Positions 2,665-3,908 of a stretch of DNA of 64,000 bases are shown one piece after another (position 1 is the stretch's first letter; each line of letters begins with the position of its first letter). A model generated the notes under the pieces. It did no database searches and was not told the origin of the DNA. It saw nothing but the letters and a program-made list of their open reading frames with translations. Source of the DNA: an uncultured Planctomycetales bacterium. GTDB taxonomy: Bacteria; Omnitrophota; Gorgyraeia; Zapsychrales; JANLHA01. Both the position numbers and the translations under genes were made by a program. Where the stretch lies: contig CAYJXI010000006.1 in assembly GCA_964374105.1 (NCBI GenBank), forward strand, positions 2,177 to 66,176. The letters are read 5' to 3'.

Positions 2665-2716
2665 TTGACTTTGTAATATGTTTATATTACAATTGTAATA
2701 AATTTGTATTACAGTT
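2665..2716 (+). promoter_or_regulatory. Sigma70-like promoter overlapping two tandem palindromic operators
   Basis: Promoter: TTGACT at 2665-2670 and TACAAT at 2688-2693. Operator 1 at 2671-2692 is the perfect palindrome TTGTAATAT-gttt-ATATTACAA. Operator 2 at 2693-2713 is TTGTAATA-aatt-TGTATTACA. The half-site is TGTAATA. The whole block lies directly upstream of the wHTH-nucleotidyltransferase gene. Confidence 0.45.
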
Positions 2717-2737
2717 TCTAATCCCGGTTCCAAGCTA

Positions 2738-3322
2738 ATGGACATCTCTAAAATATTCCATTCCCAAACCCGTAAAGAGCTCTTCCGGCTTTATTTCACC
2801 AACCCTGACCAAAAATACTATCTACGCGAACTCGAACGTCAGTTATCGATTCCCGTAAGCATGATCCGCGCGGAACTGTTGCGTCTTGAGAAAGACGGCA
2901 TTTTTTATTCCAGCCGGCAGGGGAATCTTACCTATTATGCCTTGAATCGATCTTACCCCTTGTTTGAAGAATTAAAAAGTATCGTCTTTAAAACGATCGG
3001 CATCCAGGGAGAGCTTAAGAATATTTTAAGTCCAATGAAAGGAATCGAGGCCGCTCTCATCTACGGGTCTTTCGCGCGTAAGCAGGAGACCGCCCAAAGC
3101 GATATCGATATCCTTATTATCGGCACCCTTGAACAATCCACGCTGCCGGGCCGTATTCGTAAACTCGAAAATAAGATCCAACGGGAGATTAATTACACCG
3201 TGCTGACACCGGAGGAATTCCGCGGCAAAATAAAAGAAAAAGGGTCTTTCCTCGAGCAGGTCATGAAAAATCCGGTCATATTTTTAGTGGGGGATAAGAA
3301 TGTCCTTCGAAAAATTTCTTAA
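2738..3322 (+). CDS. Winged-HTH regulator fused to a minimal nucleotidyltransferase (MNT, Pol-beta superfamily) domain
   Basis: The N-terminus is wHTH-like. The C-terminus carries the nucleotidyltransferase motif GSFARKQETAQSDIDILII, which fits the GS-x9-13-DxD pattern. Confidence 0.65.
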   Translation: MDISKIFHSQTRKELFRLYFTNPDQKYYLRELERQLSIPVSMIRAELLRLEKDGIFYSSRQGNLTYYALNRSYPLFEELKSIVFKTIGIQGELKNILSPMKGIEAALIYGSFARKQETAQSDIDILIIGTLEQSTLPGRIRKLENKIQREINYTVLTPEEFRGKIKEKGSFLEQVMKNPVIFLVGDKNVLRKIS

Positions 3323-3533
3323 TGATTACGAACGCCGCGGGCTTCTTAAAGAACAAGTGACCGGTATCAAAGCTGTCGAAGATTTAATCTCAGCGAGAAT
3401 TCCCCGCCTTTATTTAAGGCGGGGATGAGAGCAAATTCCAGAAATGAAATTTCTGGACAACGATTAGCGCCAACAGCGCTTGAGACAGTAAGTTCCCCGC
3501 CTGTGAAGGCGGGGGAATCTAATCAAGCGCTCT

Positions 3534-3908
3534 TTGAAAGACTTGAAAGCCGCCAAAGCGAACTTAAAAATCGATGAAGGGATCGCTTATACAGTCGCGT
3601 ATCTGGCGATGTTACACGCAGCCAGAGGGTTGATGTTGGTGAAAGGTTACCGTCCCGTGGGGAATTTTCAACATAAAACCTGTGTTGAGTTCATGATGCA
3701 TTTTTTAGGGAAAGAATTTAAGGCCCTCGCTGAATATTTTGATATGATGCGGCGCAAGCGCAATATTTTTACCTACGAAAGTGATATCTTGATCTCAGGC
3801 ACCGAAGCCGAAGAGGCGATCAAGCGGGCGGTTGAATTTGTTCAGCTGATCAAAGAACTGCTCCGCAAGGAACACCCCCAGATGGAGCTGGACTTTGATT
3901 TGAATTAA
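3534..3908 (+). CDS. HEPN-domain protein with a TTG start, adjacent to the MNT gene; a candidate MNT-HEPN toxin-antitoxin-like pair
   Basis: Helical profile resembles HEPN (PF05168-like): AYTVAYLAMLHAARGLMLVKGYRP...FQHKTCVEFM...RRKRNIFTYES. The canonical Rx4-6H motif is degenerate (T in place of H). An in-frame TGA at 3504-3506 limits any extension upstream. Confidence 0.5.
   Translation: MKDLKAAKANLKIDEGIAYTVAYLAMLHAARGLMLVKGYRPVGNFQHKTCVEFMMHFLGKEFKALAEYFDMMRRKRNIFTYESDILISGTEAEEAIKRAVEFVQLIKELLRKEHPQMELDFDLN

Follow-up and report, generated by a model that had tools for sequence, protein, structure and literature searches.

An IS200-derived miniature element interrupts the HEPN gene of a wHTH-MNT/HEPN module in an uncultured Omnitrophota bacterium

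The 64,000-nt stretch of DNA analysed here (hereafter the window; GCA_964374105.1, contig CAYJXI010000006.1, positions 2,177 to 66,176) derives from an uncultured bacterium that is placed in Omnitrophota by GTDB. Between window positions 2665 and 3908 it carries a gene for a nucleotidyltransferase (MNT) with a putative N-terminal winged helix-turn-helix (wHTH), followed by sequence that encodes a HEPN protein. A first-pass annotation had recognised this pair, but described the two genes as non-overlapping and separated by a structured intergenic spacer of 212 nt, with the HEPN gene starting at a TTG codon. The identities of the two proteins were borne out by profile searches, whereas the arrangement was not: we consider it very probable that the locus is a standard overlapping wHTH-MNT/HEPN module whose HEPN gene is broken after codon 29 by an insertion of 135 nt, a non-autonomous miniature derived from an IS200-type insertion sequence (IS). 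The features of the locus are collected in Table 1.

Pfam analysis of the MNT open reading frame (ORF) identified PF18765 (1.3e-9, 38.5 bits against a cut-off of 26.9) and PF01909 (3e-6, 27.9 bits against a cut-off of 21), with residues ~92-163 corresponding to a Pol-beta-type nucleotidyltransferase whose GS...DxD core reads YGSFARKQETAQSDIDILII. The protein also matches the PADLOC profile PDC-M05A over its full length (8.9e-54, residues 3-192). Its N-terminal ~85 aa resemble a winged-helix domain, as indicated by sub-threshold but concordant matches to PaaX (4e-4), Lrp/AsnC structures (~0.008), ArsR (0.036) and ArsR/SmtB (0.01), where the weak Lrp/AsnC and ArsR matches span residues 23-103. 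The MNT protein falls outside the HepT/MntA equivalog NCBIfam NF047752 (MntA_antitoxin, 5e-6, 26.3 bits against a cut-off of 60). The product of ORF 3534..3908 was confirmed as a HEPN protein by PF05168 (4.2e-7, 30.6 bits against a cut-off of 22, profile positions 10-116), and the match improves to 7.6e-9 and 36.2 bits (profile positions 2-116 of 117) when the protein is restored by removal of the insert. The restored protein matches PDC-M05B end to end (1e-23, residues 2-150, profile positions 2-145 of 146) and has no NCBIfam match. Sequence searches against the PDB returned no close relatives of either protein, only designed helical bundles and weak HTH matches.

The start of the HEPN gene lies at ATG 3300 rather than at a TTG codon. 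This ATG is preceded by a Shine-Dalgarno sequence, GGGGGA (3289-3294), in a context common to its relatives (GGAGA..ATG there, GGGGGATAAGAATG in the window), and opens an N-terminus (MSFEKFLNDYE..) that is conserved among homologs. It overlaps the MNT gene, whose stop codon occupies 3320-3322, by 23 nt, and the corresponding overlap in four relatives is 11-26 nt; the distance between the MNT stop and TTG 3534 is 211 nt, and it is not intergenic. The 42-aa ORF that begins at this ATG (3300..3428) shares its frame with ORF 3534..3908, and translation of 3300-3908 in that single frame encounters four stops (3426, 3465, 3489 and 3504), all of which fall inside the hairpin segment and are carried by the insert. 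A search with the joined HEPN protein returned more than 500 homologs, mostly of 154 aa and covering ~98% of the query, relative to which the window sequence departs at one place, a gap of 45 codons that separates ..AVED from LIKRSLKDLK... In silico deletion of 3387..3521 restored an uninterrupted ORF of 157 aa whose nucleotide sequence is 82% identical to that of the closest intact gene (L142; the loci used for comparison are designated by L numbers), with an excision junction of GAAGATTTA joined to ATCAAGCGC versus AAAGATTTGATTAAGCGC in L142. This junction was set by explicit excision and pairwise alignment, since MAFFT misplaced the gap in a four-sequence DNA alignment, and six neighbouring excision registers yield an identical product. 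Collectively, the shared frame, the confinement of all stops to the insert, the collinear homologs and the clean excision show that one HEPN gene is interrupted, and that the 'TTG 3534' and 'ATG 3633' starts, along with the truncated calls P0121 (124 aa) and P0008 (91 aa), represent fragments of it. Outside the insert the HEPN frame is undamaged and every family-invariant residue is kept, which suggests a recent event. The closest intact HEPN protein is only ~75-78% identical.

Table 1. Coordinates of the features of the wHTH-MNT/HEPN locus (positions in the window).
Feature	Position	Strand	Basis or detail
Sigma-70-type promoter, TTGACT-17 nt-TACAAT	2665..2693	+	10/12 consensus positions; best site in 2500-4200
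Operator, two tandem 22-bp palindromic units	2671..2714 (2671-2692, 2693-2714)		TTGTAATA-N6-TATTACAA half-sites
Intact wHTH-MNT gene, 194 aa	2738..3322	+	PF18765, PF01909, PDC-M05A
HEPN gene, 5' part (codons 1-29)	3300..3386	+	ATG 3300, conserved N-terminus
TTTA, presumed target/left cleavage tetranucleotide	3383..3386	+	Directly 5' of the element
Miniature IS200/IS605-type element, 135 nt	3387..3521	+	Left end plus right end, without transposase
Left-end subterminal hairpin, TCCCCGCCTT / AAGGCGGGGA, 5-nt loop	3400..3425	+	Covariation; matches left-end hairpin of tnpA-bearing IS copies
Middle hairpin, TCCAGAAAT gaa ATTTCTGGA	3437..3457	+	Compensatory changes across copies (alignment columns 55-75)
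Small stem, AGCGC caaca GCGCT	3466..3480	+	Predicted fold; in right-end-derived part
Right-end subterminal hairpin, TTCCCCGCCT gtg AAGGCGGGGGAA	3493..3517	+	Followed by terminus ..TCTA at 3518-3521
HEPN gene, 3' part (codons 30-157 and stop)	3522..3908	+	QHKT and RRKRNIFTYE motifs

The predicted fold of the inserted segment is much more stable than those of shuffled sequences (z = -7.7), and its pattern of near-identical GC hairpins was matched twice in the native sequence against 0.00 expected from 100 shuffles. Both hairpins had been noticed in the first-pass annotation, although the first was placed at 3394-3420 instead of 3400-3425, and the third palindrome reported there corresponds to the middle hairpin. 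An alignment of 13 copies of the element supported four stems, in which 10 base pairs are kept via double substitutions. Equivalents of the small stem in other copies read GGC-aaa-GCC or AGC-aaa-GCT, with 4 double changes, and the right-end hairpins covary as well (for example, CCACGCC/GGCGTGG and CCCTGGC/GCCAGGG).

The 22-nt right-hand hairpin has exact matches at 18 genome loci, which belong to metagenome-assembled genomes (MAGs) of Omnitrophota, Pirellulales, Phycisphaerales, Nitrospirota and Neomarinimicrobiota, and its context is always T(C/T)TAAT..GCGGGAG-hairpin-(G/A)TGAGAGC. At five of these loci (L007, L012, L018, L011 and L005), the hairpin forms the left end of a unit of ~545-557 nt. 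The left end of this unit reads TCTA followed by AT..GCGGGAG-hairpin-GTGAGAGC, and its right end reads hairpin-G.ATCTA, after which the flanks diverge. Four of the five units encode a 129-147-aa protein (MRLIKSAH..YHIVWVT..HIHLHMVI..), while the reading frame of L005 is interrupted. The 142-aa protein of L012 matches the whole of PF01797 (Y1_Tnp, IS200-like) at 1e-26, and a single Phycisphaerales MAG contains three of the units (L007, L012 and L018), which are nearly identical to one another and differ in their flanks. This ~550-nt unit is thus organised, by its sequence, as an IS200-type member of the IS200/IS605 family, and the insert in the HEPN gene, whose hairpin is the left end of these tnpA-bearing copies, is IS-derived.

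In addition to the full-length units, ~20 further short copies were identified in genomes and metagenomes that consist of a left end and a right end without tnpA, with lengths of 96-135 nt when the window insert is included. Identical miniature cores are present in different flanks (e.g. L039, L068, L083 and L099), and, regardless of the flanks, every copy examined is directly preceded by T(C/T)TA and terminates in ..T(C/A)TA. The regular expression used to delimit the copies presupposed the T(C/T)TA motif, which is also apparent in the raw alignments. The metagenome scan relied on 17 specified bases, and ~100 of its 120 hits were chance or unrelated matches that were filtered out by their flanking architecture. 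Genes disrupted by other copies include the metallopeptidase-like (HExxH) ORF of L083 and, at L004, one for a DDE_3 transposase. The resulting signature, T(C/T)TA followed by AT..GCGGGAG-hairpin-GTGAGAGC ... hairpin-GAATCTA, defines a compact family across Omnitrophota, Planctomycetota, Nitrospirota and Neomarinimicrobiota MAGs. Several reduced forms of the element were also observed: L013 (~2014, reverse strand) carries a single long perfect palindrome (TCTAAGTCAGCGGGAGTTCCCCGCC tgtga AGGCGGGGAACTCCCGCTGACTTAGA), L017 features the left-end hairpin directly followed by GTATCTA, and L060 is a 96-nt copy without the left-end hairpin.

Comparison of the full-length and miniature forms provided a counterpart for the middle hairpin. 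In the full IS, the left-end sequence CCTGTGTCTTCC, just after the hairpin, is complementary to the right-end sequence GGAAGACACAGG, which falls within the 3' part of tnpA. Covariation of the two segments is seen in L005 (TCTGAATC / GATTCAGG), and the duplexes of the five full-length copies have predicted energies of -22 to -35 kcal/mol. The long-range pairing of the parent corresponds to the middle hairpin of the miniatures, and may act as a functional bridging helix in single-stranded DNA or RNA. We found no description in the literature of a middle helix that equals the long-range pairing of its parent and is kept by compensatory changes.

Assemblies related to this locus also break at the element. 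Two Logan assemblies from different runs hold the left junction and stop at window position 3411, while a Logan contig from one of those runs starts at 3494 and runs through the right junction. With k = 31 for Logan, a unitig would extend 30 nt into a repeat, and on this value the breaks at 3411 and 3494 place the repeat edges at ~3382 and ~3523, which is essentially the element with its TTTA target. A further contig (CAMTXN010000026.1, assembly GCA_947085705.1) contains the whole element and ends at 3383. Breaks at the edges of the element are thus seen in three data sets, with both junctions recovered independently of the window, and the identity of the insert accounts for them.

The organisation of the element is comparable to that of characterised members of the IS200/IS605 family, in which TnpA recognises the subterminal hairpins of single-stranded DNA, pairing with guide sequences determines where it cleaves, and excision rejoins the donor flanks (PMC3597680). 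As in IS608 and ISDra2, the subterminal hairpins are on one strand, insertion is 3' of a tetranucleotide without a variable target duplication, and the ends are asymmetric, as cleavage would fall ~13 nt 5' of the left hairpin foot and ~7 nt 3' of the right foot; the parent IS likewise encodes a PF01797 transposase. In contrast to IS608, the target and terminus are T(C/T)TA and TCTA instead of TTAC and TCAA, and there is no tnpB. The insert also has the hallmarks of a palindrome-associated transposable element (PATE) or miniature inverted-repeat transposable element (MITE), namely same-strand end hairpins, ends homologous to those of a Y1 IS, no transposase, a fixed target and multiple copies. 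PATEs are ends-only, MITE-like derivatives of IS200/IS605 elements and have been described in Haloquadratum (PMC3119063) and Halanaerobium (PMC7290912). The element shares with them a presumed mobilisation in trans, a fixed short adjacent target and its multi-copy nature, but derives from a tnpA-only IS200-type parent of ~550 nt, occurs in uncultivated Omnitrophota, Planctomycetota and Nitrospirota, and has very small miniatures (96-135 nt).

Other explanations for the segment were weighed against an IS-derived insertion. If the 211 nt between the MNT stop and TTG 3534 were a structured spacer between two genes, whose hairpins terminate or attenuate transcription within the operon ahead of a TTG-initiated, non-catalytic or decaying HEPN gene, then the HEPN match of ORF 3534..3908 alone, the strong structure of the segment and the truncated ORFs reported by gene callers would all be accommodated. 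This 'spacer', however, contains the conserved N-terminal 29 HEPN codons, in frame and with the Shine-Dalgarno context and overlap of the family, whereas intact relatives have no spacer at all. In addition, no T-tract terminators are present on the + strand, neither GC hairpin passes a simple terminator scan, the RNxFTY motif is family-wide and the hairpins are IS ends, so we regard this reading, which is that of the first-pass annotation, as highly improbable. The outcome that the annotation had itself named as speaking against it, overlapping genes in relatives with the hairpins as a lineage-specific repetitive extragenic palindromic (REP) insertion, is in essence what was found. A REP repeat, or bacterial interspersed mosaic element (BIME), mobilised by a single-copy REP-associated tyrosine transposase (RAYT) would also give short GC-rich palindromes in multiple copies, and the window holds no tnpA; RAYTs are Y1/HUH relatives of IS200 TnpA (PMC3479197). 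Nevertheless, the same ends bracket tnpA in IS200 fashion, the full-length element is multi-copy in one MAG (L007, L012 and L018), and the short copies, far from forming arrays of inverted REP pairs, each join a left end to a right end, with T(C/T)TA as the fixed target and ..TCTA as the terminus, which makes this origin very unlikely.

The length of the insert (135 = 45 x 3), its very stable fold and the otherwise undamaged HEPN frame could alternatively reflect removal or skipping at the RNA or translation level, as in a mini-intron or a bypass like that of T4 gene 60, with the HEPN protein still made. This is the least probable of the explanations considered: the region has no Rfam match at the gathering threshold or even at E <= 1, the insert is far too small for a group I or II intron, its ends are those of a DNA transposon, and sister copies of 96, 116, 119 and 129 nt, many of them intergenic, show no frame constraint, while divisibility by 3 is a one-in-three chance. 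Two further candidates were rejected. A 124-nt MITE with terminal inverted repeats and a ~10-bp target-site duplication (TAATCTCAGCG / TAATCAAGCG) was discarded because TCTAAT..AGCGGGAG is conserved element and target sequence at every site, and a CRISPR-like repeat is incompatible with the single hairpin match per locus and the lack of arrays.

Some observations do weigh against the interpretation of the locus as an overlapping module interrupted by an IS200-derived miniature, or limit its detail. An empty-site allele from the same lineage was not found. Neither a cognate tnpA (best tblastn E with TnpA, 0.17) nor a second copy of the element is present in the 64-kb window, and the case for mobility in the source genome consists of the assembly breaks and of what is seen in other genomes. 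The boundaries of the insert are ambiguous by -2 to +3 nt (within 6 positions), as TAATC flanks it on both sides, which is explained by the similarity of target and terminus. The cleavage sites (TTTA and ..TCTA) are presumed by analogy with IS608 (PMC3597680). The wHTH call combines several weak sub-threshold matches with the strong PDC-M05A family match, and the HEPN 3' fragment could possibly be expressed from TTG 3534 or ATG 3633.

Upstream of the intact MNT gene, the promoter and the two tandem palindromes described in the first-pass annotation were both recovered, and the palindromes overlap the promoter spacer and the -10 element. This two-unit operator is kept upstream of MNT in four relatives (L143, L146, L148 and L149), whose MNT proteins are 58-65% identical to that of the window. 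In each, a -35 sequence of TTGACA or TTGACT at the same place is directly followed by two 22-bp units that end a few bases 5' of the ATG, with half-sites that are conserved and spacers that drift. The most likely binding partner of the operator is the MNT protein, through its putative wHTH, and the conservation of the -35/two-palindrome/ATG layout in all four relatives gives good support to the autorepression that had been proposed for it. The wHTH-MNT/HEPN subfamily (PADLOC PDC-M05) thus has this operator (TTGTAATA-N6-TATTACAA, twice) as a conserved feature. An imperfect inverted repeat (GGTGGCCGGGGGACACGC ... GCGTAGCCTCTCCCCTGGCC) was also seen by eye at ~2563-2650, between the end of the upstream ORF (2561) and the MNT promoter, and might be a terminator-like or recombination-site-like structure.

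The HEPN protein features R-N-I-F-T-Y in place of the canonical Rx4-6H RNase motif, which had been regarded as a sign of decay or of a non-catalytic partner. The module is indeed damaged, but by the insertion and not at this motif: all 116 of the 116 homologs that fit the motif pattern carry a Tyr at the canonical His position, and virtually every listed homolog has RRKRNIFTY(E/D). PF05168 "HEPN-T" proteins of the AF0298 type typically lack the His of Rx4-6H, and a second conserved His, N-terminal to this motif, has been proposed as an alternative active site (PMC3710099). The invariance of the Tyr and this description of the clade indicate that RNIFTY is a trait of PF05168/AF0298-type HEPN proteins and not decay of the window copy, with catalysis as a putative property. 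A QHK(T/S) motif is conserved upstream in 117 of 122 stored protein records, and may supply the alternative His by analogy with the AF0298-type proposal (PMC3710099).

The architecture of the module resembles that of the type VII toxin-antitoxin system HepT/MntA, which is known from Shewanella (SO_3166/3165), Aphanizomenon and Legionella (PMC7641770, PMC11586414). Common features are an overlapping, co-directional two-gene MNT and HEPN module, a GS...DxD core and the weak NCBIfam MntA match. However, the window HEPN belongs to PF05168 (AF0298/UPF0332-like) and not to DUF86, it features R-N-x3-Y instead of Rx4-6H plus the invariant QHKT, and the MNT protein has a putative N-terminal wHTH. The MNT protein has a related fold but is not a member of the characterised family, and toxicity and AMPylation are putative. 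The module also corresponds to PADLOC PDC-M05, whose components A and B are matched at full length by the two adjacent genes, with component B disrupted in the window. PDC systems are phage-defence candidates that were predicted from genomic association, as opposed to demonstrated defence systems.

The surroundings of the module were surveyed using precomputed annotations of matching contigs. Window positions 1-6400 encode a Peptidase_M10 protein, a RusA protein (1330-1905), the MNT/HEPN pair, a Hypoth_Ymh protein (PF09509; 4033-4935), a 100-aa ORF (5209-5511) and an Mrr_N protein (PF14338; 5940-6362), and this region looks like an accessory, mobile or defence island. In one relative (L143 / L144), the wHTH-MNT/HEPN pair adjoins a BrnT-toxin pair and a TIR-domain gene, while in L149 the module adjoins ORF6N, Vsr and DDE_3 transposase genes; such neighbours are consistent with a location of the PDC-M05 family in defence islands or mobile regions. 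A direct repeat of ~85 nt, ~85% identical between its two copies (778-870 and 3990-4085, 3.2 kb apart), features two short GC palindromes, reads GGGAAACGATGCATCAAATAGTGGCCGGGC(C)GGCCAC.ATTGGG..GTNNCCCCGTT..GGGAC and is unrelated to the 135-nt element. Its copies bracket ORF 878-1411, the RusA-like ORF, ORF 1935-2561 and the MNT/HEPN pair. No further copies were found in the window, and the repeat may mark the edge of a cassette or represent another miniature element. More distantly, a c-di-GMP-I riboswitch aptamer (RF01051) was detected at 45256-45346 on the + strand, with 37.6 bits against a gathering threshold of 35 and full-length model coverage.

These data can be combined in the following model. 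The module would be transcribed from the sigma-70 promoter covered by its two tandem 22-bp operators. The miniature, which comprises the joined left and right ends of the ~550-nt IS200-type element, with a middle helix made from the sequences that pair long-range in the full IS, would present its same-strand subterminal GC hairpins to a Y1/HUH TnpA dimer on single-stranded DNA; the left-end hairpin is a presumed TnpA binding site. TnpA supplied in trans presumably moved the miniature by single-strand 'peel-and-paste' transposition to a position 3' of TTTA. Translation from ATG 3300 would then end at TGA 3426, after 42 aa. No separate Shine-Dalgarno sequence precedes the 124-aa 3' fragment, and the closest run of G residues lies ~17 nt before TTG 3534, within the stem of the right-end hairpin. 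Given the early stop and the lack of a ribosome-binding site on the remainder, the HEPN protein is most likely not made, which would leave the toxin off while the antitoxin/regulator MNT is intact.

The insertion and its setting are ordinary and the element is of a kind already known, and the main value of the analysis is to correct an annotation in which one HEPN gene was split into 42-, 91- and 124-aa fragments and a transposon was read as regulatory RNA structure. An insertion in the toxin and not in the antitoxin is also the orientation that is expected to be tolerated in a toxin-antitoxin pair. A more far-reaching proposal, which we consider unlikely when its parts are taken jointly, is that the miniature serves as a reversible off-switch of a defence or toxin gene, with the middle helix as a structural requirement. 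If this were true, TnpA from elsewhere in the genome could excise the element exactly and restore the 157-aa HEPN ORF, the PDC-M05 module would be subject to phase variation at the population level, and peel-and-paste transposition in this IS200 clade would depend on the middle helix, a structural requirement that had not been described before.

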